The notes: generated by a model from the sequence alone, not told the origin. 64,000 nucleotides of DNA from an uncultured Puniceicoccaceae bacterium (GCA_905479975.1 CAJQOS010000025.1:25-64024), one strand, 5' to 3'; positions 6,158 to 29,965 are shown, counted from the stretch's first letter. Numbers and translations: made by a program.

Positions 6158-6200
6158 ATTAGTAAATGTGCTAAATCGTGTAAATTACATGCGTATGCCC

Positions 6201-9483: not shown

Positions 9484-9821
9484 GAAGCACATATGCGGGG
9501 TGCAAGCACCTCCCGTAAAGAGCCAACACGCCCCTCAAGGTTCTTTTACATGCTGTTAATCAACACTTAACAACGCATTTACTCTGCATAGGAATTACCC
9601 CCCAGTAGCAGCTGATTGATCCACTTCAGCCGCCGGAAAAAACGTATTACATCGGAGGAAAAGTCAGCCAGTAGTTACAACAGTATAGCACGAGGCCTCG
9701 CTTGAACCCGATCGACTTATATAAAAATTTGTGCCGCTGGCGACAACTCGCGGTCAGGGTCCGCGCAGAGAGTCATTGCGGCCCCCCTGCGCGCAGTTCA
9801 GGGACTTATTGAAACACCTAA

Positions 9822-10185: not shown

Positions 10186-10389
10186 TCATCGGCAGGACTG
10201 GCAGATTAACTCCCGATAGGCCGATTCGACTGCATGATACGTATCACTCTGGACATCCCCCAAAGTGATCGCCGTGTCTTTCGCAACGTCGCGCCTCAAT
10301 GTCATACCCTCCGCCAAACCTACGGGCAAGAACCCGCCATTCAGAACTTCGATGCGGTTTCCGTAAACACCATAGGTGCGGAAGCCACC
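10186..10389 (-). pseudogene. 3' remnant (SAF domain) of an oxidoreductase paralogous to 16232..17521
   Basis: Reads GGFRTYG...LPVGLAEG...RDVAK...ITLGDVQSD...VESAYRELICQSCR*. By hand, 30 of 61 residues are identical, ungapped, to the C-terminus of the intact gene. The frame is closed by an upstream TAA, with no in-frame ATG between that stop and the conserved stretch. Confidence 0.9.
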
Positions 10390-10537: not shown

Positions 10538-11242
10538 TCAAATTACAGCAAAACTCACTTTTCCTTTTGGCCGAAATACACCCACAGATGCCTGAGGCCA
10601 GTAATTCCTGTAATGCCAATTCAATTCTGAACACCATTCTTTCGCGATATTCTGCTCCCCCTCTCGATCAATATCATCCAATAAAACCGCAAAATCTTCC
10701 ATCAAACGAGTCTTTAGAAATTCCCCAGCAGGAGTGCGAACATCCGGTCGAGCCAGACACGAAACTGGCGCATCGACTAGAGCCAAATCAAATTTCTTAG
10801 ATCCAACTGATTCCTCAAGCTTTCCCAGTGAATACCAGTTGTCCGTTAATGTGTCTTCGATAGGAACATGAACCTGCGTAACGACCTCATCAAGTCCCTC
10901 ATGTTTCAAATACGAAGCAACCAGATCCATCCATTGCCGATCCTGTTCAACTGAAATAAAAGACCCACCTTTATCCTTAAGAATGCGTGCGATATGTAAG
11001 GTCGAAATACCCGCCCCAAACTCGATAACCTCCCTGCGCTGATTGATGATTATCTCATTAATTATTAGACGAATTGATGTTGGCGAAATAGATGAATTCG
11101 TCCACGGAAAATAATTGGCGTTTAAGAGTTTCGAAATGTGAATTAAAGACAAAATTTCGTTTCGGCGAAATTCTGCAAATTCATGCACCCGCAACCACTT
11201 GCTAAGAATAGGTATTTTCCTAATTGTATTTCTAATGATCAT
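10538..11242 (-). CDS. Class I SAM-dependent methyltransferase
   Basis: VIEFGAGISTL motif I, ISVEQD, FDLALVDAP, VLLDD; AT-rich coding sequence. Confidence 0.8.
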   Translation of the reverse strand: MIIRNTIRKIPILSKWLRVHEFAEFRRNEILSLIHISKLLNANYFPWTNSSISPTSIRLIINEIIINQRREVIEFGAGISTLHIARILKDKGGSFISVEQDRQWMDLVASYLKHEGLDEVVTQVHVPIEDTLTDNWYSLGKLEESVGSKKFDLALVDAPVSCLARPDVRTPAGEFLKTRLMEDFAVLLDDIDREGEQNIAKEWCSELNWHYRNYWPQASVGVFRPKGKVSFAVI

Positions 11243-11838
11243 ATAAATAAAACCGGTTGAATTTCACTATAACTGTGAAAAAAATATTTGAATAATACTT
11301 CCTCCGTGTCAACTTAACACAACAGAATACAAACTGTCCATTAATTTAGAATTACTCAATAGATTACTTCGTAATCTCGAATGGTTGGATCTGTTGGATC
11401 GCAAGTGAGATTCCCAAAAGAAAACACCCCATCCTTAGCAACATTATCCCTCAATGTCATGCATTCGGTTAGACCGATGGGCAACTAAACGCCCTCCAGA
11501 AACAGGATATGATACGACACACAGAAACAGTAGAGTGGTCCGTCCATCATTTCAACGTGTGGGATAGAGTACGGTCGCCAAAGGAGAACGTTGAATCTGA
11601 CACTTATGCAGGAGAACTTCCCACGCAAACAATTGCTGGTGTTTGTTCGCTAGAATACGGTTCACGGTGTAAATCCGGCATCGCACTGAGCCAATCCAAC
11701 GCATCCAGTGATTCTCCCCCAACAAAAGACTCCCCGAGACGAATAGTGCAAAATCAGGCAGCACACCATGTTTGATTAATAGAACTCTCATTTTTCATAA
11801 TAGTTTAATCTAGTTAGATAAATGCATAGCACTCGTCA

Positions 11839-12696
11839 TTACAATTTGTCAACTGGCTCGGATGTAGAAATACGAGCTGAATCTGCCTGACTAACACTGA
11901 TGCCTTTATGCCCACCTAACAGTTGCCCGATAAAAAAAAGCATAAAACGCGGATTATGCCATGTGTAGCGCCGCCAAAGTCGCTTCGGCTCCATCAGCAA
12001 ACGGAACAGCCATTCCAGCCCAATCCCTTGCAGCCATGCCGGCGCCTGCTTCACACGCCCCGCATGGAAGTCAAATGCCGCACCCACGCCAAGCATGGGC
12101 ATGTTCAAGCGTCCCCGATGTTTCGACATCCAGACCTCTTGCTTCGGGCAACCGATACCAACGAACAGGATTCGCGCGCCAGACTCAGCCAACTGCTCAG
12201 TATAAGTCGCATCTTCCTCAACGGTCAGCGGACGAAACGGCGGTGCAATCGCACAGCTGATCACCAGATTCGGAAGCCGCTCCGTCACCACCTCGACAAA
12301 CACTTTCAAGCTCTCCGGCGTACCACCATAGAACGCGATTGAGACACCTGCACGTTCCGCCGCCTCACAGACCTGCCAGGTTAAATCTGGGCCATACACT
12401 CGCTTGGCTGACTTTACTCCAAGCAACCTCAACGCCCATACCAAAGGAACGCCATCCGCGGTAATCAAATCGCTGGCATTGATAATCTCACGAAAATCCG
12501 GATCGTCCCACCCCTCCATTACCATATGTACATTTGACAGACAAACGTATCTCGATTCAACACGTTTCGCCCAACTCAAGACGCGCTCAGTAGCGTCCGC
12601 ATACGAGGTCGCATCTAGGCGCTGGCCGAGCACATACCTCTGCTCTAGCGGTGGATTCAGTGGCGCTGGTGACTGGTAATCTACTTGTACTTGCAT
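11839..12696 (-). CDS. wecG: WecB/TagA/CpsF family glycosyltransferase (GT26)
   Basis: NVHMV, ADGVPLVWA, RVYGPDL, FVGIGCPKQE, GVGAAFDF, RAPxW-like KQAPAW, GLEWLFRLLMEPKRLWRRY. Confidence 0.9.
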   Translation of the reverse strand: MQVQVDYQSPAPLNPPLEQRYVLGQRLDATSYADATERVLSWAKRVESRYVCLSNVHMVMEGWDDPDFREIINASDLITADGVPLVWALRLLGVKSAKRVYGPDLTWQVCEAAERAGVSIAFYGGTPESLKVFVEVVTERLPNLVISCAIAPPFRPLTVEEDATYTEQLAESGARILFVGIGCPKQEVWMSKHRGRLNMPMLGVGAAFDFHAGRVKQAPAWLQGIGLEWLFRLLMEPKRLWRRYTWHNPRFMLFFIGQLLGGHKGISVSQADSARISTSEPVDKL

Positions 12697-12745
12697 CTCG
12701 ATTTAAACAGTTCTATGAATTCGACGCTCAGTGTGCATGGCAGGA

Positions 12746-13651
12746 TCAAAACAGCGCGCGCGCTTTACGAGACAACCAACGTAGTCGAACAGGAAAAGAT
12801 TTACTATGGGTTCCATCTTCGAACCAGTGGTCGATCTTCGGGTCGATCGCCAATGCTTGCGGGTGACAGAGCGGGAAACTTTGCTCGCTCGCAGCCACTT
12901 CCAACCCGGCAAAATGTGCGGTCTGCGTACCCTCGTCATTAAAGCCGATATTTTCTGTCAGATTCAATCGGGGAATAATCACACATCCAGAATGCTTCCA
13001 GATTGTGAGTAGAAAACGGTAGGCCCAAGTATCCCTGCGGTTTCGATCTACCTGACCAAACATCCATGTCCAATAAAGACGCGCCCGAAGATTCTTAAAA
13101 ACTCGGCAACAAATTGAATCCCAGTTTTTTTTATCCCGCCACCCGCTGATCGTTGGATCGAAATGATCCCAGGCGCGTTTCCATGTGGCCCACCCCCAGC
13201 ATTCAAAGTAATTTGAAAAACCATAATCGTCATCTATGACAAGTGGCTTAGGCCGCCGATGATGCCCCGAGATGGCAAATACCTCGGAGGAGTCAGCATA
13301 CCGCGTCAGTAACTCTTCGCAGAAACGAAAGAAAGAGGGGGTGGGAATAACATCGTCCTCAACGATAATGCCAGCCCCGCAATCGTCTAAAAACCAAGTA
13401 ATTCCACCGGAGACACTCCGAAAGCAGCCTAAATTATCATCGCGATAGAGCCGTTTCACCTCACATTCCCATGGAAGATTCTCCAACAAGACACGCACCT
13501 CTGCGACCTTCTCGGCCTCGCCGGGGTGATCGGCGCGCGGACCGTCACAAAGCAACCAGACACGCTTCGGCGCAACAGGCTTCAACGCCTCGATCTGCCT
13601 GCGCGTGCTTTGCGGACGATTAAAATGGATGAGTAAAACTGGTGTGTTCAC
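12746..13651 (-). CDS. GT-A fold nucleotide-diphospho-sugar transferase (HlpA-like)
   Basis: PVLLIHFNRP, CDGPR, NLGC...SGGITWF, IIVEDD, WGWATWKRAW, PRLNLTENIGF. Confidence 0.8.
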   Translation of the reverse strand: MNTPVLLIHFNRPQSTRRQIEALKPVAPKRVWLLCDGPRADHPGEAEKVAEVRVLLENLPWECEVKRLYRDDNLGCFRSVSGGITWFLDDCGAGIIVEDDVIPTPSFFRFCEELLTRYADSSEVFAISGHHRRPKPLVIDDDYGFSNYFECWGWATWKRAWDHFDPTISGWRDKKNWDSICCRVFKNLRARLYWTWMFGQVDRNRRDTWAYRFLLTIWKHSGCVIIPRLNLTENIGFNDEGTQTAHFAGLEVAASEQSFPLCHPQALAIDPKIDHWFEDGTHSKSFPVRLRWLSRKARALF

Positions 13652-14949
13652 AACGCGGCTCCATTCTTTGCAGCAAAAACTTTGTCTTCAACGCCTAGGC
13701 ACTTACGGACCCGATAAAGTGCATCGATCTCCTCGGCAATCGACTGGATAACCGCCTCGCAGCTCTTGCCTTCGGTCTGGATGCAGATATCTCCCTCGGT
13801 CATTACGTCATTTAACCCCGAAAAATCCAGAGCCAGTAGTCGCATGCCGTGTAGCTTGGCTTCCATCGGTGCATAGCCACCTTCACCATGCAGGGTTGGA
13901 AAGACGAAAAGATCGTGTGCTAAAAAATAGAAAGAGAGGTCACAGCGGGGCACCGTCTTGGGATCGACAAAGACCACGTTCAGTCCTTTCTCTTCAACAT
14001 AATCCTCGTAAAGCCGTCGGGCGGGTCCATCCCCCATGATAGTAAAAGTATACCGCACATCTTCAGGCAAACACGACAAGGCACGCAGGATTATTATCAC
14101 GCCCTTCCATTCCAACAACTTTCCCGTGTAGAAGAGCTTCAGAACATCAGGGTCAATCAATACCTGACTGCGCGCTTCATCCAATTTGAAATCATTCACG
14201 TCCACGCAGAGAAAGTCCTTTTTAACGATACATTTCTTGCGCGCGAATTCAGGCATAATTGCCTTCGTCGTGGCATTCCCCACATGTATCTGACTCGCCC
14301 TGTAAAGTGTCAGCAAGACGAATGGATCCAAAAAAGATAGGCGTTGCACAAACATCCTTAGAGATTCTTTCAATCTCGCTAGAGGCGAAAAGAAGCAGCG
14401 AAACCGATGCGGGAATCCACCCCCACCAGTGATCGGATCCAGGTGTAGTTTCTTCGAAAAATACCAAAGGAAAGAAGGCCAACGATAGGACCCGTAAGTG
14501 CTTTTGATCCCCAGATCAAAAGTGTTCCTACGAAACCTGCGGCGCATGTGAAAAAACAAACGAAACTCCCAGACATAAGCATACAACTGATAGCCCATCC
14601 CCGGTATCGTTTTAAGGAAGAAATCGACGCTTTTGGAAAAATCAACCAAGTGCACAACCACGTTGTCCAAACCGTGTTTCTGAACCTGTGCCTCAATGTA
14701 CGGATTCACAGTTGCTGAGGTGAACAGATAAACCTCAGTCGAACGCGCTGCATAGTCCTTCAGGCATTTCCAGCCCAGTTCATGCTCGCTGCCTCTATTT
14801 TCACTGCAAGCAAAAGCTGAAATTGCTGTAGCTATAGGATGTTTCTCCAATTCGGGGTCAAATCTGTTTTCACTCAAGGTTGCCGCGCTAGCCTTAACGG
14901 TTGCCCTCCCTTCGCGGGCTGTAGTCAACTGAGACACATTGGAGTTCAT
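13648..14949 (-). CDS. GT4 family glycosyltransferase
   Basis: ISAFACSENRGSEHELGW, YTGKLLEWKG, MGDGP, FVFPTLHGEGG...MEA. The start is uncertain: ATG at 14949 or TTG at 15006. Confidence 0.85.
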   Translation of the reverse strand: MNSNVSQLTTAREGRATVKASAATLSENRFDPELEKHPIATAISAFACSENRGSEHELGWKCLKDYAARSTEVYLFTSATVNPYIEAQVQKHGLDNVVVHLVDFSKSVDFFLKTIPGMGYQLYAYVWEFRLFFHMRRRFRRNTFDLGIKSTYGSYRWPSFLWYFSKKLHLDPITGGGGFPHRFRCFFSPLARLKESLRMFVQRLSFLDPFVLLTLYRASQIHVGNATTKAIMPEFARKKCIVKKDFLCVDVNDFKLDEARSQVLIDPDVLKLFYTGKLLEWKGVIIILRALSCLPEDVRYTFTIMGDGPARRLYEDYVEEKGLNVVFVDPKTVPRCDLSFYFLAHDLFVFPTLHGEGGYAPMEAKLHGMRLLALDFSGLNDVMTEGDICIQTEGKSCEAVIQSIAEEIDALYRVRKCLGVEDKVFAAKNGAAL

Positions 14950-14995
14950 ATATACTCTTAGATGAAGGTCGTTTTCTAAATCACGCCGAGATAAC

Positions 14996-16114
14996 TCACT
15001 TAACAAACTCTAAGTATTTCGACATGATTCGACTAGAAAGGTTGCGAATACAGAAATGTGTATTCGCTGTTTCCAAAGAATTTGAGCGTAACTTCAACCT
15101 AAGGGATTCATCCATGCAAAGGCTCATTAACTCGGCCAATTCACCAACATCCCCTGTGGTGAAGTGATAGCCATTTCTTCCGTATTCTATCTGGTCAGAG
15201 CATCCCTCACAATTCGTTCGGATCGGAACGACGCCACAAGCCATCGCCTCTACAACAACCATGGGAAACCCCTCAACCGAAGATGGCAACAAAAGTGAAT
15301 CCGAAGCCCACAGAGTCAAACGAGGTTCTTGAAAACCAAGTAAGTGAACGGAGTCACCCAATCCATGTTTGGCAATGAAGGCTTTCATGTCTGCCTCCAT
15401 CGGACCTTTTCCTGCAAAAATCAAATGCAATTCCCTGTCAGGCAGACGATTTCGAAGCTTTAGGAACGCATTGAGAGAATCAAACGGTCTTTTCACTTCA
15501 GCCAGCCTACCCAACTGTATAAAAACAATCGCAGCATGAGGCAGTCCTAGCACGGCTCTCGCACCCTGTTTTTCAGTGGAGCTGGGTGCTTTGAAATAAT
15601 CCAGATCAACTCCAGTCAAAACCTTCTGAACTTGATCAGGTCGAATCATGTATTCATTCAGGTATTCACGCTCTATTTCAGTTGATATTGCGAAATATGT
15701 TCTAGCAAGGATACGACTGAGTCCCTTCGAAAAAATAAGTTTACTCCATCGATTTCGATTCGAAGATCCATCCCTCCCCAAGTGCGAAGTGCCAAAAACC
15801 GGTATTCCTGTAAGCCAACCGACTGGAGAAACTCGCTTCAAACAGTGTAATTCGTGTACATGAATTACATCAATTTCCTCACGTAAGATTAATTCACGTA
15901 ACTCAAGAATCGATTTCAAGGAGCAGTTATCCATACTGTGATTAGTGAGTACCACTTCACAATAAGAACTGACTAATGATTCCATCGATGAATCAGGTAA
16001 ATCAATAGAATGTGCAAACAAAACAACCTCACAGTCTAATGATTGAGCTAAACGCGAGCAGTAAACGGCGAGCCCGTTCTCATTTAGACAATTTATAAAA
16101 AATCCAACTTTCAT
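14996..16114 (-). CDS. GT4 family glycosyltransferase
   Basis: VIHVH, TGVDL, QLGRLAEVKR, AGKGP, LLPSSVEGFPMVVVEAMACG. Confidence 0.9.
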   Translation of the reverse strand: MKVGFFINCLNENGLAVYCSRLAQSLDCEVVLFAHSIDLPDSSMESLVSSYCEVVLTNHSMDNCSLKSILELRELILREEIDVIHVHELHCLKRVSPVGWLTGIPVFGTSHLGRDGSSNRNRWSKLIFSKGLSRILARTYFAISTEIEREYLNEYMIRPDQVQKVLTGVDLDYFKAPSSTEKQGARAVLGLPHAAIVFIQLGRLAEVKRPFDSLNAFLKLRNRLPDRELHLIFAGKGPMEADMKAFIAKHGLGDSVHLLGFQEPRLTLWASDSLLLPSSVEGFPMVVVEAMACGVVPIRTNCEGCSDQIEYGRNGYHFTTGDVGELAELMSLCMDESLRLKLRSNSLETANTHFCIRNLSSRIMSKYLEFVK

Positions 16115-16231: not shown

Positions 16232-17521
16232 TCATAGGTAGGATAGAGAGGTTAACTCCCGATAGGCCAACTCGACTCCAAAAGGCTTATCATTCTGGAC
16301 ATCCCCCCAAGTGATCGGCTTGCCTTTAGGGATATCTCGCAAGATCATTTTCCCTGCGGCCAGTCCTACCGGAAGTAACTCTTCGCTACGCATGATCGGA
16401 CTGTTTTCACATTCTCCATAGTATGCGAAGCCACCAAGTCCATCTAGAATGTCACCCGCCTTGAGATCCTTCTTCGCGATTGCAACGACCTCCACCTTGA
16501 ACGCATCCAATGCGTCAACGGTTCCGTCAGAAAAGTCCACCAAGCGAACGATGGAGAACGGAAGTTCGAAAAACAACAAGTGATAAGGAACGTAGAAACT
16601 ATAGAGCGGACCTTTACCGAGCTTCCCATAGTCAAGAAAATGCCGTGAGACTAGATCGTCCGTAGTCGCATACACAAAGACCCCAGGACCAGGCTGGGCA
16701 CCGACCACCATCTCGACAATCCCACCAAGCGCCTTGAGTTGATCGAGATCATAGCGATCTGTCAGAGCATCAATGTGCTCACTCGACTCGATCGCAAGCA
16801 TCCCGCGGCGAGCGACTTGCATTCCTGTCGCATTGGCGATGCAAGCTTGTTCAAGTGCGACCTTAGTGCCGTCGGCAAAACTAGTCACCATATTGACACT
16901 GAGTCCGCACTGCTCCGCAAAGCCTTTCTGCGTATCCGGGTTGCGATCGTGGTCGAGCATCCCCTTGATGTTGCCGCATACCAGCGGCGTAAACCCCATC
17001 GATCTGACATGACGATATAGATTCAGAGTGACTCCGGGTTGATCACCATCTCCGAGCGTATAGCGTACACCCGCCTGCGCAGCCTTCTGCTGCAAATAAG
17101 GACCGATGGTGGCATCGATCTCAGCATTAAACGTCACCACATGCTTACCAGCTGCAAAGGATTTTAATATGACGTCAAACGCAAACTCAATTGCCCCCGT
17201 CATTTCAACGATCACGTCGATACATGCCGCATCGATCAATACGTGCGCAGACTCAGTCACCACTGCTCGACTTCGACGAATCGCATCATCCACTTGACTG
17301 GCAGTGCTTGCAGACAGCACACCCTCGACCCCAGCAGTTTGGTAGGCCTGATGCGCACGCGCTACTGTGCGGTTATAAATCGCGGCAATCCGCATACCAG
17401 GGATGTAACGCTCGATCTGATTGACGAGACCAATGGCCATCTCGCCAGCGCCGATCAAACCGACCTGTATCGGCGTCCCTGCGGCTTCACGCTCACTTAA
17501 TTTCTGATCAACAATTATCAT
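16232..17521 (-). CDS. Homoserine-dehydrogenase-like NAD(P)-dependent oxidoreductase with a C-terminal SAF domain
   Basis: ATG at 17521 (MIIVDQ...); VGLIGAGEM Rossmann motif; NAEIDATIGP, GDGDQPG, SFADGTK; C-terminal AIAKKDLKAGDILDGLGGF...LPVGLA. Confidence 0.9.
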   Translation of the reverse strand: MIIVDQKLSEREAAGTPIQVGLIGAGEMAIGLVNQIERYIPGMRIAAIYNRTVARAHQAYQTAGVEGVLSASTASQVDDAIRRSRAVVTESAHVLIDAACIDVIVEMTGAIEFAFDVILKSFAAGKHVVTFNAEIDATIGPYLQQKAAQAGVRYTLGDGDQPGVTLNLYRHVRSMGFTPLVCGNIKGMLDHDRNPDTQKGFAEQCGLSVNMVTSFADGTKVALEQACIANATGMQVARRGMLAIESSEHIDALTDRYDLDQLKALGGIVEMVVGAQPGPGVFVYATTDDLVSRHFLDYGKLGKGPLYSFYVPYHLLFFELPFSIVRLVDFSDGTVDALDAFKVEVVAIAKKDLKAGDILDGLGGFAYYGECENSPIMRSEELLPVGLAAGKMILRDIPKGKPITWGDVQNDKPFGVELAYRELTSLSYL

Positions 17522-17552
17522 CTTTTTTATTTTAGTAGCTGGGTTGCTGCAA

Positions 17553-18104
17553 TTATTGAAAATATGGTGCTTGCAGCACCTCGAAGAGTGGCCATGCAGC
17601 ATCTTTCTCAGAAATAACTTCGACCGGAAGCGGCCATTTAATATCAAACCGAGAATCATTATAGCGCACGCCTGCTTCTAGTTCGGGAGTATAAAACTCA
17701 CTGACCATATAGAGTGCCTCCGTCTCATCCACCAAAGTCATAAAGCCATGCGCGAAGCCGCGCGGCACAAAAAGCATCTTCAGATTATCAGCAGTCAACT
17801 TCACTCCGTAGTGTTGCAAATAGGTCGAGGAACTGGGCCGTAGATCGATAATGACATCATACAGAGCTCCGCGCACACAGCGCAGTAATTTAGTCTCCAT
17901 GGCAGGGGCTTGTTGAAAATGCATGCCACGCAGTGTCCCAGCCTTCTGACTGAACGAAACATTACTCTGCACCACGTTCGACTCAATGCCATGCGACTCA
18001 AATTCATTTCGACAAAATGCACGGGCAAAATAGCCACGATCATCACCACGTGCTTCTAGCTCAATGAGCCATGCATCCTGAAGGGGGATTCTTTCAAATT
18101 TCAT
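17553..18104 (-). CDS. rfbC: RmlC-like NDP-4-keto-6-deoxysugar (3,5-)epimerase
   Basis: DDRGYFAR, QSNVSFS, GTLRGMHFQ, DLRPSS, VPRGFAHGF, ISEKD. Confidence 0.9.
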   Translation of the reverse strand: MKFERIPLQDAWLIELEARGDDRGYFARAFCRNEFESHGIESNVVQSNVSFSQKAGTLRGMHFQQAPAMETKLLRCVRGALYDVIIDLRPSSSTYLQHYGVKLTADNLKMLFVPRGFAHGFMTLVDETEALYMVSEFYTPELEAGVRYNDSRFDIKWPLPVEVISEKDAAWPLFEVLQAPYFQ

Positions 18105-19200
18105 TGTAAAATAGCTCTGTGTATTCGTGGATCTGTGACTGCGTCTTCAACAAGGGTGTCGCCTCACCGTCGTGCACCGACCGATACCAATCCACGGTAT
18201 GCGTAATCGCACGATCAAAGTCCCACACGGGCTTCCAACTCAATAAACGTTCCGCCTTATCGATCGCCAGGTTGAGTAAGTTCGCTTCATGCGGCGGATG
18301 CGGATCGGCATCCGCCTGCCAAGCCCCCGGCCAGAGAGCTAGCACCTGCTCGACCAATTCACTCACGGCACGATTGTCATCGGGATCTGGGCCGAAATTG
18401 AAGCCAGAGCAGACTTCTACCCTTCGCGCATTGCCCTTCGCCTCGGCCATACCTAACGCCAACAGAAGATAGCCCCCTAAAGGTTCTAGCACATGCTGCC
18501 ATGGACGTGTGGCTCCGACATTACGAACGTGAATCGCCTGCCCCTGCGCGAGTGTCCGCATACAGTCGGGCACGATTCGATCCAAGGCCCAGTCACCGCC
18601 ACCTATCACATTCCCAGCACGTGCCGATGCGAGCGATATCTGATGCGTGCTTCCATATTTATCCGGATCAAAAAAAGAACGACGATACGAAGCGATCACC
18701 AACTCTGCCGCACCTTTACTGGCACTATACGGATCATGCCCACCCATCGGATCATCTTCACGGTAAGGCTCCAACCGTTCGCGGTTCTCGTAGCACTTGT
18801 CCGTCGTAATCATGACCGCCTCGCAGCGCTTCGTTAATTGACGAATCCCTTCCATCAAATGAATCGTGCCCATTATATTCGTCGAAAAAGTCTCCACAGG
18901 AGACTCGTAGGAATAGCGAACCAGCGGTTGTGCGGCCAAATGAAAGACGATATCAGGTTGCGCGCCTTTCACTAGGTGGACCAATTGCTCAGCTTCGCAA
19001 ATATCCAAGATGTGATGCTCCATTCGACTCGCTAAATCAAGCTGGTCAAAAAGTGACGGCGTCGTATTTGGCTCTAAGCTGACTCCAACAAGGTCTACTC
19101 CAAGGCTCAAGAGCCATTCGCTCATCCAAGCACCCTTGAAACCAGTATGCCCGGTCAGTAACACCCGCTTTCCTTTATAATAAGATTCTAGTTTATTCAT
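18094..19200 (-). CDS. rfbG: CDP-glucose 4,6-dehydratase
   Basis: ATG at 19200; LLTGHTGFKGAW, HLAAQPLVRYSY, TTDKCYEN, DPYSASKG, RAGNVIGGGDW, RPWQHVLEPL. Confidence 0.95.
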   Translation of the reverse strand: MNKLESYYKGKRVLLTGHTGFKGAWMSEWLLSLGVDLVGVSLEPNTTPSLFDQLDLASRMEHHILDICEAEQLVHLVKGAQPDIVFHLAAQPLVRYSYESPVETFSTNIMGTIHLMEGIRQLTKRCEAVMITTDKCYENRERLEPYREDDPMGGHDPYSASKGAAELVIASYRRSFFDPDKYGSTHQISLASARAGNVIGGGDWALDRIVPDCMRTLAQGQAIHVRNVGATRPWQHVLEPLGGYLLLALGMAEAKGNARRVEVCSGFNFGPDPDDNRAVSELVEQVLALWPGAWQADADPHPPHEANLLNLAIDKAERLLSWKPVWDFDRAITHTVDWYRSVHDGEATPLLKTQSQIHEYTELFYNEI

Positions 19201-19216
19201 CTTTGACCAATGCCCC

Positions 19217-19993
19217 TTACGCCCAGACCTTCCATGGTGCCTTGCCGGACTTCCAGAGCTCTTCAAGAACCATTTTGTCACGCAACGTATCCATCGGCTG
19301 CCAGAAGCCATCGTGGCGATACGCAGCCATTTGACCTTCTCTCGCGAGGTCTCGCATAGGAGATTTCTCCCATGGCTCCGAATCCGAGGGGATGTAATCG
19401 ATCACCTTTGGCTCGAGGATAAAAAAGCCACCATTAATCCAAGCACCATCCCCTTGTGGCTTCTCGACAAAATCACAAATTTTCTTTTCATCGGGGCCTA
19501 GCGCGAATGCACCAAACCGCCCGGGAGGCTTGATTGCGGTCAATGTCGCCAGACAGTCCTGCTCATGATGGTATTTGATTGATTCTGTAATATTTACGTC
19601 CGACACACCATCGCCATAGGTCATGCAGAATGTTTCGTCATCAAGATACTTGCGGATCCGGCGTAGACGCCCCCCCGTCATGCTCGTGAGCCCCGTATCA
19701 ACACAAGTCACCTTCCACGGTTCGGCCGTGTGATGATGCACCTCCATGCTGTTGTTCTGCAAATCGAAGGTTACATCTGCATTCGCAAGAAAAGAGTCTG
19801 CAAAATACTGCTTGATTATGAAACTCTTGTATCCGCAAGCGACCACGAAATCAGTTATCCCATGGTGCGCATATATTTTCATAATATGCCAGAGAATCGG
19901 TTGCGCTCCAATCTCAACCATAGGCTTCGGACGAACCGAACTCTCCTCACTAATGCGCGTCCCGTATCCACCTGCTAAAATCACTGCTTTCAT
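19217..19993 (-). CDS. rfbF: Glucose-1-phosphate cytidylyltransferase
   Basis: [17 protein letters not shown]...[32 protein letters not shown]. Confidence 0.97.
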
Positions 19994-20215: not shown

Positions 20216-21049
20216 TCATCTGGTAAATATTCGTCGATAAGTCGCCAGCCAGGCCAATGGCCAGGTTGCACCACCGTGTTTATTGAGGAAGTAGGCCCAT
20301 TCCTTCAACGGCAGCCCCTTCGGTGTATTCACCCGCTTGTACCTTTCCCTTAGGGTTACCGATTCATACCAGGCACTCACCGGTGGATTGCGACTGCACT
20401 CGCCATGAAAACCGCACCCGACCAACACCGCGACACCAGCACGAACAGCACGAAGGCCATAGTCATAATCACCCATAGAATGAGAAAAGCGCTCATCGAT
20501 TCCTCCCAGAACATTCGCGGCAGTATTTGAGATCAATACAATATTCCCATTCATCGTATGGCATGCTTGCACTTTGGATTGAGGATGTAGGCGTTTAAAT
20601 TTCCCGGCATGCCACGAGGACGCAGCGATTAGCCCGCCATACGTGCATTCCCCCGAATCGGGATCTCGAGTAGATCCCACCACAATCCTCCCCTGCAAAC
20701 TCTCAGTAACTTCGGCGTCTTGAATCAGAGAAGATAGAGCATTCGGGTAGAGTATAGTATCATCATTCAGCCAAAGATAGTAATCAGCACCTCGATCGCA
20801 TGCTTCTTTAAAAGCTGCAGCCATACCTCGGTTCCAATACAGCAATCCATTTCCCCTTAAAACGGTGACGGATCCCTTAAACGCATCCGCAACTGCCCCT
20901 GCAGTGCCATCTTCGCTGCCGTCATCCATCAGCACAGCACTTAAATCCACATTCTGCCCCTGAATGAAAAATGACCTCAAGGCGCGAAGCGTTTGCTCTC
21001 GACGGTTGAAAGCGGTCAGCACCGCACATATTTTGAGTGGTGTATTCAT
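20216..21049 (-). CDS. GT2 family glycosyltransferase
   Basis: [34 protein letters not shown]. Confidence 0.9.
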
Positions 21050-22365
21050 ATGTTGGCGTTCACGGTATCGGAATCTCTCAACCAGGCGATTGCCGAGCCT
21101 AGAAAAATAGCCTGTATATAATCAGATCCATACACGAGATAATAAACTAGCTGAGATGCGATTATCACTGCCATACACAGCAAAATCGGATGCGCAGCCT
21201 CATCCTTTTTAGCATGCTGGAGCAGTCCACGAAAGAGGATTCCATATAGTGCGATAAGCGCCAATAAACCGAGTGCACCACCCCGCAAGAGCGTCTGTAC
21301 GTAGAAATTGTGTGGCGACTCAGTGCGCGCTACCGGAACACCATCACTCGTTAGAGTGATACGATCATATCCGGTTCCAAAAGGATTTCCAATCAGCACC
21401 TCACGGACCGAATCCATCTGCTCGCCTGTCAACAAGCCAATCCATCCCTGGACTCGCCAAGAAAAAGTGCTAGTGCCAGCGCCAGCGCTGGTATCAAGAG
21501 AGCTTGAGACAGCCTCTTCATAGGAATCCGACAACGCTTCAAATATAGTCGCGCCGAAAAGAACCGTGCACAATCCGCCAAAGACCACCGTACCGATCAC
21601 TCCCCACTTGATCAGCGCACTCCTCAAAGAGGGCAAAAGCCATAAAACAAGAGCAAATGAGGTGATCATCACCACCCAGACGCTTCGATGCTGGAGGACG
21701 ATCAGTAAGGGAAAGAGCGTCACTAAAAATGGAATGGAATATGGATGCAAGTCCCCGCGACTATGTATGAAGATGGCAATCAACAGCACTTGAAGTATGA
21801 ACAGTGTGTGCGCCGCATCGATAGGGCGCCCTCCTCCGCGTGAGAAATCGCCATCCATAAAACCGATGATGGCGATCACGGTTAGACAAGACACCCCAAA
21901 TAAAAACAGTTTTTCGACATTCATCCAGACCCTCGCGATATTGAGCGATGCAACGTATGTGGCTGTACAGATTATATAGAAGTAGCCCCTGAATTCGTTG
22001 GTCGCCGCTTGCAGACCGAATTCTCGGACTCCGAGTATATAATTCAAACCAACAGCACTCGACCACAGTAACAGAATCAAAAGCACCACATCCTTCCGTC
22101 CAAAACCATCGCGCAAGCGAAAAAAAACAAATGGAAAAGCTAGACAGAGGAGGATGGGGGCGACCACGTCGATTGCGTTGATGGAGATTCCACCCAAATT
22201 AACAGCAGGCAATAGCCCCGAATCAAATAAGCTTGAAGCGACAAAAATCAGGACAAGCACCCAGAGCAACAAGATCGGCCTATTTTCGAGGATCCGAACC
22301 ACTGGGATAACCAGCAAAGCTCCCAAACATGCCAAGACGAATAATATGACTAGATAAATTAACAT
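21046..22365 (-). CDS. wzy: O-antigen polymerase/ligase family protein (Wzy)
   Basis: About 10-12 TM segments; [33 protein letters not shown] Wzy_C-type motif. Confidence 0.8.
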
Positions 22366-22428
22366 TTCCCTAATGTCCTAGATGTCGTTTCCAGCACCAA
22401 AAAACCAACTGATCCCTGCAGTTGCAAA

Positions 22429-23616
22429 TCAGTTCACGAACCGCTGCGACATACTTTTCTGTGATCGTATTTCCTCGTACCCATCAAGGTATCTGCTGGC
22501 GACAGCTGACATTTGAAAGTTCTCTTTCGCATATGCATGCCCCGCGTTTGAAAATCGCTGCCAAGCGGATTCTTCAGTTAGTAGTGAAGTCATGCCAACG
22601 GCGATCGAATCAGCATCACCCACATCAACCAGCAAGCCTGCTCGCCCCTCGTCGAGCACCCAAGGCACCGCCCCGCTACGCACTCCACCAATAACCGGCA
22701 CCCCCTTTGCCATGGCCTCGATGAGAACCATGCCAAAAGATTCCTCATGCGAAGGATGCACCAACAAGCTAGCCTCGCTGAGGTGAGCCTGAGCTTCCGA
22801 GTAGTCCATGTCGCCGAGAAAATCGACACGTTCATCAAGCTGGCGTTCGATTGCCCATCGATGACCTTCACCACCTTTTTCGGAGCCAGAGCCGATCAAC
22901 TGAAGACGTACATTAGGTTGTGTTATCCGAACTTGGTTAAACGCCTGCAGCAGAGAGGGTAGGTTTTTCCGCTTAAAGAAGCCACGGTTAATGGCCACGA
23001 CTGTTCTCGATTCGTCCCGCCCTTTCCACTGGGCAACCGGATTGAACGACTCACTGGGGATCCCATTTGGTATAAGATCGACGGAATTAAAGGTCCAATG
23101 CTCGATCATCTGTTTCACGTAGGGTGAATTCACGCTAAAGTGCTTTCCCTTCAAGTAGACCGCTGCCGCCATCGAAAAACGAATCAGTCGATAGGCGTCG
23201 GGCATTTGCCACAGAATCGCCGGAGCCCAATCACGCACGCTAATCAGGGCGTCCTTATCTATACTCAATGCCGCCAGCGCGAACTCATAGGTCCAATGCG
23301 CGTTGAGTATATCACAAGGCTCATTTTCCAACGCTGACCTAAGGTCCGCACGTTCCAATTTAAAAAAGTCTCGAGCGCGATGGCTCTGGCGATAGCGTCC
23401 TAGGCGAATTTTTAAAGCTCCAAAATCCCATGCCGCGGGTTCACTGATTTGTGAACTCAAACCGAACACAACGACTTCGTGCCCTGCCGCCAGAAAAGCA
23501 GCGACCAGCATCGAGTTCATTGGAATTCCATATGCCGCAGGTAATACGTCTTTATCCAAGTCCAACGTTTCCGCGAGCAAAGCGGTATCAATCGGGCCTA
23601 CAAATCCTATTTTCAT
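22429..23616 (-). CDS. GT4 family glycosyltransferase
   Basis: [39 protein letters not shown]. Confidence 0.9.
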
Positions 23617-23640
23617 CTTATCTGTTCTCGTGCACTGATG

Positions 23641-25197
23641 TTAGCGAGTGGTTTGCACCGCGCTGGGCAGCAATGGGAATCGTCCGATTGCCTTGAAGAT
23701 CTGAGCTTTGAAGCCCGGCAGGAAAAATAGCACCAGCAAGCCGAACGGGATGGCCGCGCAGGCCGTGTAGAGCAGGAAACGGGGCCAGCTATCGACTACA
23801 AACAAAGTGGCCGCCAGATAGATCGGCCCGAGTAACAGCGCCAGCGGCGCCCATTGCCACAGCAACGGACTCAGTGCCTGGGCGATCAAAACACCCTTGC
23901 GGCGGAAAATATAGATGTACCGAAACTGCGCCAGCAAGCCCGCGATGATGATTGCCAAGGGCACGCCGAGCAGACCAACGGCATAGATACCCAAAACAAT
24001 GAGAAAAATGCGGACTGTTTGTTCAAAAAACTGGGTAAATCCTATCGCGCGAATTTCTCCCATTGAAACGCCCAAACCGACAAACAGACTGTTGCGAACT
24101 TGAATAAAGGATGCCAATGCGGCGAGACAGGTAAACAGCTGCCCGGCAAACTGCGTCTCAGATAACCAAATCGCGATAAAGCCATGATTGAAAAAAGCAT
24201 ACAACGAGACGCCCACCCCTGATGCGACGAAATAGCCACGGGCTAATTGTGCCAAGGTCTGACATCGGCGTTCGTTGCCAACTTCGGGATCACTAAAATA
24301 GTGACTACACGCGCCATAGAGCCCCGACAGAGCATGGTTAATAAAGCTCTGCAGCATCTGCACCACACGCAGCGTTACCGTGAAGGCGACGGTCGCCTCT
24401 GGGCCGATCGCGCGGGTAATCAGAACGGCTGGCAAATTTTGCGCCAACTGGCCGCTCGCTTTGGCCGCCAAGATAGCGGGTGTCATCGACATGTAATCCT
24501 TGAAAATGACTGCAGACCAGCAATTGCGCTGCCCTAGCGAGCGTAGAATCAGTAGCGTATGCATCAGGTTGATCACGAATGGCACGAGCGTGCGCAAGAG
24601 CGCACCCACGACCAAGGCCCAGAGGCCCAGCTCAAATACAACCAACGCCAACAGGATGCCAACCAAACTCACCAAGTCGCCTAAAGTCTGCGCGAAAACT
24701 GGAATATGATTCCGCTGCAGGGCGGATGCAAAATTGCGCATAAAGTCGTTTGCAAAATGAACTATCGACGCAATCGCGGTCGCATAATAGCAGTGGATAA
24801 TAATCCGCTGAAAGACTTGATCGACCTCCAACAAATTGAATATAAAAAATCCAACTGCCAGAATGACGATCGAAAATAACGTCAGAACCCCGACCATGAC
24901 AACCGCACCATGCCAGAAATATAGGGTCACTGGGGCGAACTCCTTACGCCCAAAAGCAGCCGCACACCTCTGAAGCGTGACTACCGAAACGCCCACATCG
25001 ACCATTGAAATCAATGCTAGAACACCACCCGTTGCTAACCAAAAACCATACAGTCGATCTCCCAAATAGTGCAAATAAAGAGGGATCATGAGCAAGCCCT
25101 GAACGATAAGAATCAGATTACTCAGCCATCCGCCAGTGATATGCCAGATGACTGCTTTTTTGCGTTCAGCGCGCAAGCTAAAGTCGATTTCTCTCAT
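23641..25197 (-). CDS. wzx: Polysaccharide flippase (Wzx/MATE-like)
   Basis: About 12-14 TM segments; PLYLHYLGDRLYGFW...DVG N-terminal flippase motif. Confidence 0.8.
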   Translation of the reverse strand: MREIDFSLRAERKKAVIWHITGGWLSNLILIVQGLLMIPLYLHYLGDRLYGFWLATGGVLALISMVDVGVSVVTLQRCAAAFGRKEFAPVTLYFWHGAVVMVGVLTLFSIVILAVGFFIFNLLEVDQVFQRIIIHCYYATAIASIVHFANDFMRNFASALQRNHIPVFAQTLGDLVSLVGILLALVVFELGLWALVVGALLRTLVPFVINLMHTLLILRSLGQRNCWSAVIFKDYMSMTPAILAAKASGQLAQNLPAVLITRAIGPEATVAFTVTLRVVQMLQSFINHALSGLYGACSHYFSDPEVGNERRCQTLAQLARGYFVASGVGVSLYAFFNHGFIAIWLSETQFAGQLFTCLAALASFIQVRNSLFVGLGVSMGEIRAIGFTQFFEQTVRIFLIVLGIYAVGLLGVPLAIIIAGLLAQFRYIYIFRRKGVLIAQALSPLLWQWAPLALLLGPIYLAATLFVVDSWPRFLLYTACAAIPFGLLVLFFLPGFKAQIFKAIGRFPLLPSAVQTTR

Positions 25198-25385
25198 AAT
25201 TACTCTGAACTTTTAAAGCTGAGCCGACAGCCATGCTGCCGCCATTGGTTAGTCTGCGAACCAGAACAAAACCTTTGTTGTTTGAAAAACGCTTCGTGAC
25301 ATTTTCAAAACGATCGAATAGCGAATGCTTCCAAATGGAAGCACCCTATGTGTTAGGACAGAGGCGCTTGAAGCGCTGCATTTGC

Positions 25386-27614
25386 TTAAGAAGCCTGGTC
25401 ATAATATCCCTTATATTTCTTGCGATTCTTCTCATAGCCAGCCCCATAATGGTTCCGACTATGGTTTCCGTAGCCCACTGCAGCGGGAACATTCTTGATC
25501 CCATTAAAAACAACCCCAAGCACCGCTGCATTCGTATGCTCCATTAGACTGATTGAATTACGTACCTTGGATCGGGTTGCATGATACTGACGAGCGACAA
25601 ACACGCAGGTATCCGCATATTCAGCGACCAACGTTGCATCGGAAAAAAGACCCACTGGCGCGGTATCATAAATCACAACATCATACTTCGCCTTCAAACG
25701 TTCAAACAGTTTTGCGACTTTTCGATCCCCCAGCACTTCAGTCGCGTGACTGCTAGTGCCACCGCTTGGAAGCAGTGACAGGTTACCATTAATGGCAACA
25801 ATCCCCAACAACATTGCCAATTCCTTGTCCCCGGTCGGATCGTCCAGATGCACCGCTTCTTTGTACCAGGAGAGTAGGCCGAGATCGTTATTCTTTTCAA
25901 ACGCCGATTGTAGAGTTGAGCGCCTCAAATCACAATCAACCAGAAGCACCTTGTAACCATGCGATGAAAAGATGCCGGCAAGATTACTCGAGACCACCGA
26001 CTTACCTTCGCTCGGCAAGGAACTAGTGACCAGAATCGATAGCGTCTCTTCACCCAAATTGTTTTTTAGCCGTAAGTTCGTGTAGATCAAACGAAACGAT
26101 TCGACCAAATCCTCATCGTTGCGCAAGACCGCCTGCGAAAGTTCCCGAATGTCCTTTTTGGGAAAGAATCGCAAGTCCCCGAGTAAAGGTTTTCCAGAGT
26201 AAAACTCGATATCAGAAAAACTGCTCAGGCGATTATCCAGTAATTCAATTCCAAGTGGAACCCCGACCAGAAAAACACCTCCCAAAAAAAGAGCTCCCGC
26301 AAGAACCTGCACTCGGGAAAGTGCATTGGACGTGCTAGGTAATCGCGCCCGATTCAAAACACGCACATTGTTCAAATCAATCTTCTGTGCGATATTCGTC
26401 TCATTGTAACGCGTCGAGAGCAAGTCGAGCATACGATGTAAGTTTTCCACGCTTCGCTCCTGACGCTTGTAAACCAGCAAAGACCGTTCGGTATCCAAGA
26501 CCGCTTGCTCGGCCTGACTCGTCTTCTGATCAAGAATGCTTAACTCGAAGCGAATTGCGGAGCATTCACTCTCGACCTGTTTACAGGCATGCTCGACCGA
26601 GAGAGCTAGGGCGGCGGATACCGATTGCTGTGAGGCCTCGTTTTCCAGAACCCTTGGATGACGCTTCAGATAGGTTGCGTCCAAGGCCTGACGCTCACGC
26701 TTCAACTCATTGAGCTGATTATAGATTGAGTTAATATTAGTTAGCCCCCCGATGAACGGAATCTCCAGCAAGCGATCGAGATCATTCTGCGCCTTCTCAA
26801 TCTGCTCCACCCGGCTTTCCGCTTCTAGCAAGCGGATACTCGCATTGGTTTCAGCATCGCTCAATCGGCGCAAGCGCTCAACCACGATTCCTTTATCCTG
26901 CTGTAAGGTAAACAGATTATGCTCCCAGCGAAATTCTTGCAGCTCCGTCTCTGCCTCTTCCAGTTCGTCGCGCAACAGCTTGACTTGCCGGCCAAGAAAG
27001 TCAGATGCCTCGCTGGTGGAGGTGCTTCTCAAGCTTGCAATGTAGTTAATAAATCCATCCACGTAAGCATTGGCCAATCTTTGCGCCATAGCCGCATTCG
27101 GGTGGCTGATGACCAAACGGATCAACTGCGATCCGTCATCTTCGCCGCGGTCGACAGTCAGTGCGTACTTCATCATCAATCCCGCTGAATCGGGCTCCTC
27201 TGCATCGATCGGACGCTCACTCTCAGGGACGACATAGGGCATTAGGAAGTCCTGTAGTTCCTCTGCGCTCAATGAATCGACTACCGCCTCGGCAAGTTCG
27301 CGGGTTTTAAGCCGCTGCACATAGGTATTCATGTAGGTATTCAACAGGTTGACGTTCGTCACGCGGGTATCATCGTCCCTGCGGATATCCATCATATTCT
27401 TGCTATTCAACTCGACGATCATCGATGCTTGAGCCTCATAAACGTCCTCTCTCGATACAACCGCGTAAATAAATAATAAGGCGAATGCAGCCCCGGCAAA
27501 AAAACCCGTCTTCCACCGATTGCGGATAATATAGAGTATATCAATCAGACTGATTAATTTGGCATTTGCATCCGCTTCAAAACCAGGACGTTTGTTTTTT
27601 TTGCGCTTAGCCAT
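25386..27614 (-). CDS. wzc: Polysaccharide co-polymerase/tyrosine autokinase (Wzc/GumC)
   Basis: Two TMs flanking a coiled-coil periplasmic region; Walker A SSLPSEGKS; LVDCDLRR; YDTAP; Tyr-rich tail YGNH..HYGAGY..KYKGYY. Confidence 0.93.
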   Translation of the reverse strand: MAKRKKNKRPGFEADANAKLISLIDILYIIRNRWKTGFFAGAAFALLFIYAVVSREDVYEAQASMIVELNSKNMMDIRRDDDTRVTNVNLLNTYMNTYVQRLKTRELAEAVVDSLSAEELQDFLMPYVVPESERPIDAEEPDSAGLMMKYALTVDRGEDDGSQLIRLVISHPNAAMAQRLANAYVDGFINYIASLRSTSTSEASDFLGRQVKLLRDELEEAETELQEFRWEHNLFTLQQDKGIVVERLRRLSDAETNASIRLLEAESRVEQIEKAQNDLDRLLEIPFIGGLTNINSIYNQLNELKRERQALDATYLKRHPRVLENEASQQSVSAALALSVEHACKQVESECSAIRFELSILDQKTSQAEQAVLDTERSLLVYKRQERSVENLHRMLDLLSTRYNETNIAQKIDLNNVRVLNRARLPSTSNALSRVQVLAGALFLGGVFLVGVPLGIELLDNRLSSFSDIEFYSGKPLLGDLRFFPKKDIRELSQAVLRNDEDLVESFRLIYTNLRLKNNLGEETLSILVTSSLPSEGKSVVSSNLAGIFSSHGYKVLLVDCDLRRSTLQSAFEKNNDLGLLSWYKEAVHLDDPTGDKELAMLLGIVAINGNLSLLPSGGTSSHATEVLGDRKVAKLFERLKAKYDVVIYDTAPVGLFSDATLVAEYADTCVFVARQYHATRSKVRNSISLMEHTNAAVLGVVFNGIKNVPAAVGYGNHSRNHYGAGYEKNRKKYKGYYDQAS

Positions 27615-27635
27615 ACAATAGAGACATCTGATCGA

Positions 27636-28331
27636 TTAAAAGACACGTCGGGGCACAAAAATCACGTCATCGGGGTACACTAAGAAACCAGACTTCGGGG
27701 CACTACTCCCCTTTGATTTCAATATCTTGTCTACGTTTACGACTGCTCTGCCGCTCGAACCCGCAACGGCAGCAGCACGTGTGACGTTCACTTCGGTGGT
27801 CTTCGCAGTGCCGGTAAAACCGCCGGCCCCCGCAATCGCGATTTGAACCGGGATGCCGTTGCGCCCCGGTGGAATTTCAATCGATCCCGGCGACTCGACC
27901 TCGCCCAATACGGTGACTACCTTTGAGGCAAACTCTTTGATGCTGATCGTTATAATCGGATTACGCAGATACTGCTGTTCCACAAAAGATCTTTCGATTT
28001 TTTGTGCCGCGGCGGAAACCGTCAACCCACCCACTGGGACTTCACCGATAAGCGGAACCGAAAGCATGCCTTTGTCTGAAATACGCTGCTCGCTGTCTAA
28101 GTCTTTTTCGCCGTAAACAGTGACTTTCAACAAGTCAAACGGGGACAGCTTATAAACGACCTCTTTTTCCCGATGAACCTCGGGCTGAGCCCTGAAGGTT
28201 CGTGACGACCGCTCAGCCCCCTGAATGCACGTCAGAGTCCCCAGGAACAAACACACCAAGGCAGCCCATAGCCAGCATTGCCTACAACATCGACGCTGAA
28301 AAGCGCTTTGATATTCGGTAACGGTGTCCAT
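27636..28331 (-). CDS. wza: Polysaccharide biosynthesis/export protein (Wza-like, SLBB)
   Basis: YKLSPFDLLKVTVYGEKDL, G.LSVPLIGEV, VLGEVESPG, IAGAGG, PDDVIFVP. Confidence 0.9.
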   Translation of the reverse strand: MDTVTEYQSAFQRRCCRQCWLWAALVCLFLGTLTCIQGAERSSRTFRAQPEVHREKEVVYKLSPFDLLKVTVYGEKDLDSEQRISDKGMLSVPLIGEVPVGGLTVSAAAQKIERSFVEQQYLRNPIITISIKEFASKVVTVLGEVESPGSIEIPPGRNGIPVQIAIAGAGGFTGTAKTTEVNVTRAAAVAGSSGRAVVNVDKILKSKGSSAPKSGFLVYPDDVIFVPRRVF

Positions 28332-28343
28332 GGGATTGAAAGG

Positions 28344-29546: not shown

Positions 29547-29965
29547 ATTCTCTTTGCTTCTATTATGTGAATTCGGCCGCACCGATCATAGAAAAACAAG
29601 GAACTCATAGATCAAGAGTTCTCCTAGAACCGCCTCTGCCTGTTAGTTAGTTTAGCTGAAAGATTAAAAAAAAGGACTTAAACAGCAAGCGCAAACACCA
29701 CACATCTAACCAAATATCATAATTCAATCGCCAAAAAGAAACGTGCCGATCAATAACCACTATCAATTGGAACGTATAAACGCCACACGCACGTTAGTGG
29801 AACTTAGAATGCCCCGATAGCCCTCCAGCATGATGCCGACGCGGTTCAACGACCTTTTTAAAGGCAACAAAACAAACCTGCGCAGCCTCCGTCCCCAAAA
29901 ACCCGCAACTCTTGACCAAAACAGCCTTTACCTCCGAAAAGGATTCTGGAAACGTGCTCTCAATT

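Follow-up and report, generated by a model that had tools for sequence, protein, structure and literature searches.

Which enzyme carries out the last redox step in an operon for a CDP-linked sugar whose cluster contains no recognisable reductase? The question is raised by a stretch of 64,000 nucleotides (GCA_905479975.1, CAJQOS010000025.1:25-64024; hereafter the window) from the metagenome-assembled genome (MAG) of an uncultured Puniceicoccaceae bacterium (Verrucomicrobiota; completeness 94.9%). The window carries a single exopolysaccharide locus on its minus strand, at about 10.5-29.6 kb, and within it, on the same strand, lies a run of four genes encoding the cytidylyltransferase RfbF, the CDP-glucose 4,6-dehydratase RfbG, an RmlC-type epimerase and an oxidoreductase with DRL_cat and SAF domains (Table 1). 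An initial annotation of the window had already described this gene order, and all four genes were found where it had placed them. Successive genes are separated by 16, -4 and 31 nt, the stop codon of rfbG overlapping the start of the epimerase gene (ATGA). From the gene context we infer that the oxidoreductase, a member of the DLO1 family, takes a CDP-4-keto sugar through the terminal redox step. That it is specifically a C4 reductase, standing in for the short-chain dehydrogenase/reductase (SDR) of the RmlD or HS41.18 type, is a reading to which we would give an even chance.

The identities of the first three enzymes, as predictions from sequence, are shown by curated equivalog models. The cluster has matches that exceed the cut-offs of TIGR02623, TIGR02622 and TIGR01221, and thus the front of a CDP-6-deoxyhexose pathway like that of Campylobacter jejuni HS:41. 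The RmlC-type protein keeps the catalytic residues His62 and Tyr132, has 3RYK as its best solved relative (E 9e-48) and is encoded by the only PF00908 gene of the MAG at its 94.9% completeness. The entry codes of the Coxiella epimerase CBU1838 (7PA1, 7P7I and others) were not among its solved relatives listed at E <= 1e-20. As read from the sequence, the true start of rfbG is the ATG at 19200 (MNKLESYYKGKRVLLTGHTGFKG), the listed open reading frame (ORF) being 18094-19311; the true start of the oxidoreductase gene is the ATG at 17521, which is invariant among homologues, its listed ORF being 16232-17659.

The oxidoreductase had been described as homoserine-dehydrogenase-like and as a member of an orphan family. 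It is not itself a homoserine dehydrogenase: the match to the model of that enzyme, NF004976, reaches 43.9 bits where the cut-off is 205, and is confined to the Rossmann domain. PF21135 (DRL_cat), PF03447 (NAD_binding_3) and PF08666 (SAF) match at 164, 32.9 and 29.3 bits, each above its cut-off, and the order of a Rossmann NAD(P)-binding domain, a DRL_cat catalytic domain and a SAF-like C-terminal domain fits the DRL/DLO family. The only close solved match is the DRL (DXR-II) of Brucella abortus (3UPL/3UPY, E 8.5e-64), to which the protein is about 31-38% identical. The same entries are recovered by Foldseek from an AlphaFold2 model (pLDDT 87.9; E 3e-41, TM-score 0.90); Gfo/Idh/MocA enzymes and homoserine dehydrogenase come next, with TM-scores below 0.5. 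The core motifs GDGDQPG, N-x-K, DGTK-x3-E and PYHL are common to both proteins, and an invariant Arg51 after strand 2 (NRT) suggests NADPH as the cofactor. No other DRL_cat gene occurs in the MAG.

The DLO1 clade was defined in 2013 by Carretero-Paulet et al., who describe for it Leu, Ile or Val at DXR-II position 229, Ala or Ser at position 121 and a hydrophobic residue at position 250, and its listed members include proteins of Coraliomargarita akajimensis, Nostoc sp. PCC 7120 and Coxiella burnetii (PMC3847144). The window protein has Val221, Ala114 and Leu242 aligned with Thr229, Gly121 and His250 of 3UPY, and C. akajimensis is a relative of the source MAG. These residues place the oxidoreductase in DLO1, an uncharacterised branch of the DXR-II (DRL) family. 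It is an orphan in the sense that DLO1 has no assigned function, but its family has already been named. In the literature searched we found no publication giving DLO1 a function or a biochemical assignment. ApnO (D-apionate oxidoisomerase), considered as a second characterised member of the family, has the fold of ketol-acid reductoisomerase (KARI) and is unrelated.

Could the protein simply be a DXR-II, that is, an alternative reductoisomerase of DXP (1-deoxy-D-xylulose 5-phosphate) in the methylerythritol phosphate (MEP) pathway that lies in a polysaccharide locus by chance? The identity to Brucella DRL and the shared three-domain fold would allow it, but we regard this as almost certainly wrong. 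Of the fosmidomycin/substrate anchors Lys191, Lys193 and Thr229 of DXR-II, which become Asn184, Lys186 and Val221, only one in three is kept; the signature residues are replaced in the DLO1 manner (Lys191 by Asn, Thr229 by Val, His250 by Leu, Gly121 by Ala); and the MAG encodes a canonical Dxr (DXR-I; 446 bits against a cut-off of 316), whereas DXR-II typically supplies the MEP step where DXR-I is absent. DLO proteins that were tested did not complement a dxr mutant (PMC3847144). These replaced anchors, the failed complementation and the normal Dxr together argue that the protein is not a DXP reductoisomerase. Moreover, the context is one of sugar nucleotides and not of isoprenoids, and the gene is accessory, being present in 8 of the 61 Puniceicoccaceae genomes that we sampled and standing beside RmlC in the MAG and in all six others with a close homologue.

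If the oxidoreductase is not a DXR-II, the question becomes whether a more familiar enzyme could take the last step. The initial annotation had noted that the cluster lacks rfbH/ddhC, rmlABD and an SDR-type 4-reductase, and indeed no ORF called from 5.1 to 32 kb is of the rfbH/DegT type, corresponds to rmlA, rmlB or rmlD, or encodes an extended SDR other than RfbG. RfbG is the sole extended SDR in the window, and an SDR-type NADPH C4 reductase like that of HS:41 was accordingly not found in the cluster. PF01041 proteins are absent from the window, their five hits in the genome all lying on other contigs, which leaves the cluster without the ddh/rfbH step towards CDP-3,6-dideoxyhexoses. The best scores for RmlA, RmlB and RmlD in the 94.9% complete MAG (27.5, 127 and 163 bits, respectively) are all below the curated cut-offs, and the RmlABCD set for dTDP-L-rhamnose was therefore not recovered. 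The sole RmlD-like gene, at G000:C63:11583-12536 (L081:7581-8537, minus strand), is the 163-bit match, against a cut-off of 224. It is flanked by dnaE and hisC and occurs in 58 of the 61 family genomes, so that at least 47 genomes have it without RmlC. Its conserved role therefore cannot lie in reducing what an RmlC makes, nor does it count as a partner dedicated to the operon. The proviso that a canonical reductase might exist elsewhere thus applies to one sub-threshold gene, which could have a helper role.

How widely the oxidoreductase travels with the epimerase was addressed by comparative genomics. A degenerate-pattern scan with one genome per species gave at least 568 species genomes with a confirmed relative, and a protein search gave more than 7,600 clusters at 90% identity. 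Our context counts rest on the best 80 loci of these at least 568 genomes, with 10-kb flanks, of which one (L001) is the window's own contig and 79 come from other genomes of Cyanobacteriota, Bacteroidota, Pseudomonadota, Deinococcota and Chloroflexota; the DLO1 proteins of these 79 are 51-58% identical to that of the window. In 61 of the 77 loci whose upstream DNA is long enough for the test, DLO1 is preceded on its own strand by an RmlC-like gene that ends at most 500 bp away; in 73 of the 77, such a gene lies somewhere in the locus. Where the flanks are complete, rfbF lies within 10 kb of DLO1 in 46 of 53 loci. Within the Puniceicoccaceae sample RmlC occurs in 11 genomes, three more than DLO1, and counting these Verrucomicrobiota relatives the coupling of RmlC and DLO1 spans six phyla.

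Two observations concern the proteins themselves. In seven of the loci (L004, L007, L009, L010, L002, L006 and L008; Bacteroidota and Roseobacteraceae) the RmlC-like protein encoded upstream of DLO1 carries Asn where the catalytic Tyr (Tyr132 in the window) would be expected, and these proteins may be mono-epimerases or use an altered mechanism. A protein from outside the window, P0124 (1276 aa), carries N-terminal R3H and SUZ domains and, at 834-1267, a complete DLO-like region with 48% identity to the window protein; either a eukaryotic gene or a fusion in the gene model may underlie it.

Almost every one of the 79 loci contains exactly one extended SDR, which is always of a C4-oxidising kind and belongs to one of three types. 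The first is RfbG (21 loci). The second, in 31 loci, is a 342-aa SDR whose best solved relative is 6VO6, which we take to be Cj1427; beside it stands a flavoprotein scoring 627 bits to the L-2-hydroxyglutarate oxidase equivalog, and the pair lies between rfbF and RmlC (for example L030:4104-6844 and L046:6860-9462). The third, in about 10 loci, is a UXS/dehydratase-like SDR directly downstream of DLO1. Across the 79 loci there is no recurrent second SDR of the reductase type. Cj1427 is a ketoglutarate-dependent C4 dehydrogenase of GDP-heptose that acts without dehydration and regenerates its bound NAD+ by converting 2-oxoglutarate to L-2-hydroxyglutarate (PMC10680097). A flavoprotein that recycles L-2-hydroxyglutarate to 2-oxoglutarate would fit well with a neighbouring SDR acting as a non-dehydrating C4 dehydrogenase of CDP-glucose.

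The type of front end switches at least 5-10 times on a quick tree of the DLO1 proteins, even between sister proteins of the Nostocales, and what all three types have in common is chemistry via a C4 keto group. This repeated switching argues that the conserved unit is RmlC plus DLO1, accepting any CDP-4-keto-hexose however it is made. The term CDP-6-deoxysugar module given to the cluster is consequently apt for the window, with its RfbF, RfbG and RmlC, but not for the family at large, since RfbG is often replaced by a non-dehydrating C4 dehydrogenase. We also asked if the epimerase residue corresponding to Met123 of Coxiella CBU1838 (Phe121 here) tracks RfbG as opposed to a front end that retains the 6-hydroxyl. 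It does not, the choice of Tyr or Phe following phylogeny.

Taken together, the tight packing of the four genes, the coupling to RmlC, the presence of rfbF, the single C4-oxidising SDR per locus, the lack of a recurrent second SDR and the near-universal, non-dedicated nature of the RmlD-like gene are what point to DLO1 as the terminal redox enzyme. They also lend support to the earlier proposal that the SAF protein supplies the missing redox step. With this in mind, one may propose a route through which the operon would supply the exopolysaccharide locus around it with an epimerised, CDP-linked 6-deoxyhexose made from glucose-1-phosphate. RfbF would form CDP-glucose and RfbG would convert it to CDP-4-keto-6-deoxy-D-glucose, after which the RmlC-type cupin would epimerise C3 and/or C5, beside the keto group. 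The DLO1 oxidoreductase would then consume the 4-keto intermediate with NADPH, and would thereby pull an unfavourable epimerase equilibrium forward. In the version that we favour, it would reduce the C4 carbonyl stereospecifically to a CDP-6-deoxy-L-hexose, to which inversion of both centres would give the 6-deoxy-L-talo or L-manno configuration; the carbon reduced, the stereochemistry and the cofactor are all predictions of this model. The product need not be the 6-deoxygulose suggested initially.

The closest characterised pathway is that of C. jejuni HS:41, in which CDP-glucose passes through a 4,6-dehydratase, a 3,5-epimerase and an NADPH-dependent C4 reductase of 36.6 kDa (PMC12369002). 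Both systems combine a cytidylyltransferase, a CDP-glucose 4,6-dehydratase, an RmlC-type epimerase and an NADPH enzyme that removes the 4-keto group (in the window, by proposal), and both serve a surface polysaccharide. Because the first three steps are the same and the fourth is a C4 reduction, HS:41 supports the C4-reductase reading of DLO1. However, the HS:41 reductase is annotated as a nucleotide-sugar dehydratase and taken to be of the SDR type, whereas the window has the 429-aa DXR-II-like protein at that point; moreover, unlike HS:41, the window operon has no pyranose/furanose mutase. A similar order of C4 oxidation, RmlC-type epimerisation and C4 reduction is followed in the C. jejuni heptose route by Cj1427, Cj1430 and Cj1428 (PMC10680097). 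Those related loci that carry a Cj1427-like SDR follow the same logic on CDP-glucose; their L-2-hydroxyglutarate oxidase has no C. jejuni counterpart. The window differs from the heptose route in using a dehydratase, so that the C6 hydroxyl is lost, in using CDP instead of GDP, and in its non-SDR terminal enzyme.

A further parallel is found in the heterocyst envelope polysaccharide (HEP) island of Anabaena PCC 7120. Its genes are annotated as a cytidylyltransferase (alr2825), a hypothetical protein (alr2826), an epimerase/dehydratase (alr2827), two proteins of unknown function (alr2828 and alr2829), rfbC (alr2830) and an NAD(P)-dependent oxidoreductase (alr2831), followed by glycosyltransferases, hepC and hepA (PMC4390870). 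The Nostocales loci that we retrieved match this order, including hepC-like and hepA-like genes. By accession arithmetic, the DLO1 entry NP_486871 (PMC3847144) is alr2831, and this, with the matching gene order, makes the module part of an island required for the heterocyst envelope polysaccharide. Most of the retrieved Nostocales loci, those of the HEP-island layout, have the Cj1427-like SDR and the flavoprotein (compare alr2826 and alr2827), whereas the window has RfbG and a non-cyanobacterial exopolysaccharide locus.

Several points weigh against DLO1 being a plain C4 reductase. DRL, the one relative that has been characterised and the one close in structure, is a reductoisomerase and not a simple reductase. 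To our knowledge, the heterocyst envelope polysaccharide contains only glucose, mannose, galactose and xylose, and hence no sugar predicted under any of the readings considered here. The near-universal RmlD-like SDR could act as the C4 reductase in trans. The gene context would fit plain reduction at C4, reduction at another carbon or a reduction coupled to a rearrangement. Finally, at least 50 protein clusters of 668-729 aa from outside the window carry a full RmlD domain (275 bits, YxxxK intact) fused to a DRL_cat domain. A DRL_cat domain joined to a canonical RmlD argues that the DLO activity does not duplicate that of RmlD; it could instead have the opposite stereochemistry, or perform a rearrangement or a further step. 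The fusions form two groups that are 28-31% identical to each other and come from Omnitrophota, Sulfurovum and many metagenomes, with P0276 and P0366 as examples from Omnitrophota and Sulfurovum MAGs; a metagenome scan for one of them, P0193, gave distant relatives only. Identity between their DRL_cat domains and the window protein is no more than about 30%, and the argument from them therefore transfers only loosely.

The RmlD-like gene and the fusions bear on a second explanation, in which C4 is reduced in trans by the RmlD-like SDR on contig C63, or by another of the roughly 10 extended SDRs of the MAG, while DLO1 carries out some other redox reaction on the sugar nucleotide, for example at C3 or C2, or a second oxidation or reduction after RmlD. 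The genome does contain the RmlD-like gene, and the fusions suggest that both activities can serve one pathway. In addition, the Gfo/Idh/MocA-type folds, distant structural relatives of the DLO1 protein, include nucleoside diphosphate (NDP)-sugar C3 ketoreductases. We nevertheless consider this explanation distinctly unlikely: the RmlD-like gene sits between dnaE and hisC and persists in genomes without RmlC, the related loci show no recurrent second SDR, and the locus has no 3,4-ketoisomerase, 2,3-dehydratase or aminotransferase with which another keto group could be made.

The kinship with DRL and the fusions bear equally on a third explanation, namely that DLO1 is a sugar-nucleotide reductoisomerase. 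Such an enzyme would, as DXR-II does, carry out an alpha-ketol (or retro-aldol/aldol) rearrangement of an alpha-hydroxy-ketone and then reduce the resulting aldehyde. On CDP-4-keto-6-deoxy-L-mannose this would formally be the dihydrostreptose-synthase reaction, giving CDP-dihydrostreptose, a ring-contracted 3-C-hydroxymethyl furanose, and in the loci that keep the 6-hydroxyl through a Cj1427-like dehydrogenase it would give dihydrohydroxystreptose (DHHS). Brucella DRL/DXR-II is by far the closest relative, and since the substrate is an alpha-hydroxy-ketone in either case, be it DXP or an NDP-4-keto sugar, changes would be needed in the substrate-anchoring residues alone. The differing residues (Lys191Asn, Thr229Val and His250Leu) do include, by alignment mapping, the reported fosmidomycin/phosphonate anchors Lys191 and Thr229, and the fusions would imply a product unlike that of RmlD.

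The dihydrostreptose and Coxiella DHHS pathways (StrM/CBU1838) likewise pass a double-epimerised NDP-4-keto-hexose to an NADPH enzyme, so that the coupling of DLO1 to RmlC would fit the need for an epimerised substrate (PMC9095892). According to Cross et al., the C4 oxidase and the ring-contracting synthase of the Coxiella pathway are still unknown (PMC9095892), and C. burnetii has a DLO1 member (PMC3847144). On the other hand, streptose-type sugars have been reported from very few organisms, whereas the species genomes with the module number at least 568; in Streptomyces the ring contraction is attributed to an SDR, the RmlD paralogue StrL; and the Coxiella nucleotide is dTDP, as opposed to CDP in the window. 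We therefore hold this explanation to be an alternative worth taking seriously, if rather improbable, and less improbable than the reduction in trans. The same tentative weight attaches to its general form, that DLO1 enzymes are the missing sugar-nucleotide reductoisomerases, making hydroxymethyl-branched furanoses from RmlC-epimerised NDP-4-keto-hexoses.

If DLO1 is indeed the terminal enzyme on CDP-hexoses, a family without a function since 2013 would gain a testable substrate, and the final step of 6-deoxyhexose synthesis would have a second, non-SDR solution. The genes alr2830 and alr2831 of the HEP island would be tied to a defined chemical step, the L-2-hydroxyglutarate oxidase would be predicted to recycle the co-substrate of a Cj1427-type ping-pong dehydrogenase, and a candidate for the final enzyme of dihydrohydroxystreptose synthesis would be at hand. 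Should the improbable reductoisomerase chemistry prove correct, DLO1 would be the long-sought DHHS synthase of Coxiella, streptose-type sugars would be widespread in environmental polysaccharides, the heterocyst envelope included, and DXR-II would have arisen from a DLO ancestor by changes in the substrate anchors alone. For the window itself the gain is one of annotation: a proposed complete four-enzyme pathway and an exopolysaccharide with an unusual CDP-derived sugar.

Table 1. Genes of the exopolysaccharide locus and related fusion proteins; positions are counted from the first nucleotide of the window.
Feature	Position	Strand	Supporting matches
rfbF, glucose-1-phosphate cytidylyltransferase, 258 aa	19217..19993	-	TIGR02623 equivalog 430.4 bits, cut-off 300; Pfam NTP_transferase
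rfbG, CDP-glucose 4,6-dehydratase, 368 aa	18094..19200	-	TIGR02622 equivalog 464.5 bits, cut-off 278
RmlC-type NDP-4-keto-hexose 3,5-epimerase, 183 aa	17553..18104	-	TIGR01221 174 bits, cut-off 155.75; PF00908 212 bits
DLO1-family (DXR-II-like) NAD(P)H oxidoreductase with C-terminal SAF, 429 aa	16232..17521	-	DRL_cat + NAD_binding_3 + SAF
Downstream genes: two GT4 glycosyltransferases, unassigned 301-aa ORF, WecG/TagA-type transferase, methyltransferase	10538..16114	-	Pfam, NCBIfam
Upstream genes: GT2, Wzy-like polymerase, GT4, unassigned 518-aa ORF, Wzz/tyrosine-kinase-like, Poly_export/SLBB, beta-barrel porin	20216..29582	-	Pfam
Start-less remnant, last ~65 codons of a second DLO1 gene	10195..10389	-	48% identity across 65 aa (tblastn, intact protein as query; E 2.7e-10)
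RmlD-DRL_cat fusions (P0193, P0275, P0276, P0333-P0375)	outside window		

A scan of the operon for promoters and terminators gave nothing exceeding shuffled controls. The genes downstream of the operon would be the ones that use its sugar. Flanking the locus beyond them are genes for two large putative surface proteins. The 1361-aa protein (1034-5119, plus strand) has PA14, cadherin and carbohydrate-binding-module-like domains, and the other (756 aa; 7222-9492, minus strand) matches a bacterial TSP3 repeat weakly and below threshold; the two ORFs between them, at 5144-7202, are without a Pfam match. The remnant of a second DLO1 gene sits about 6 kb downstream of the intact one and suggests a past cassette replacement in the locus.

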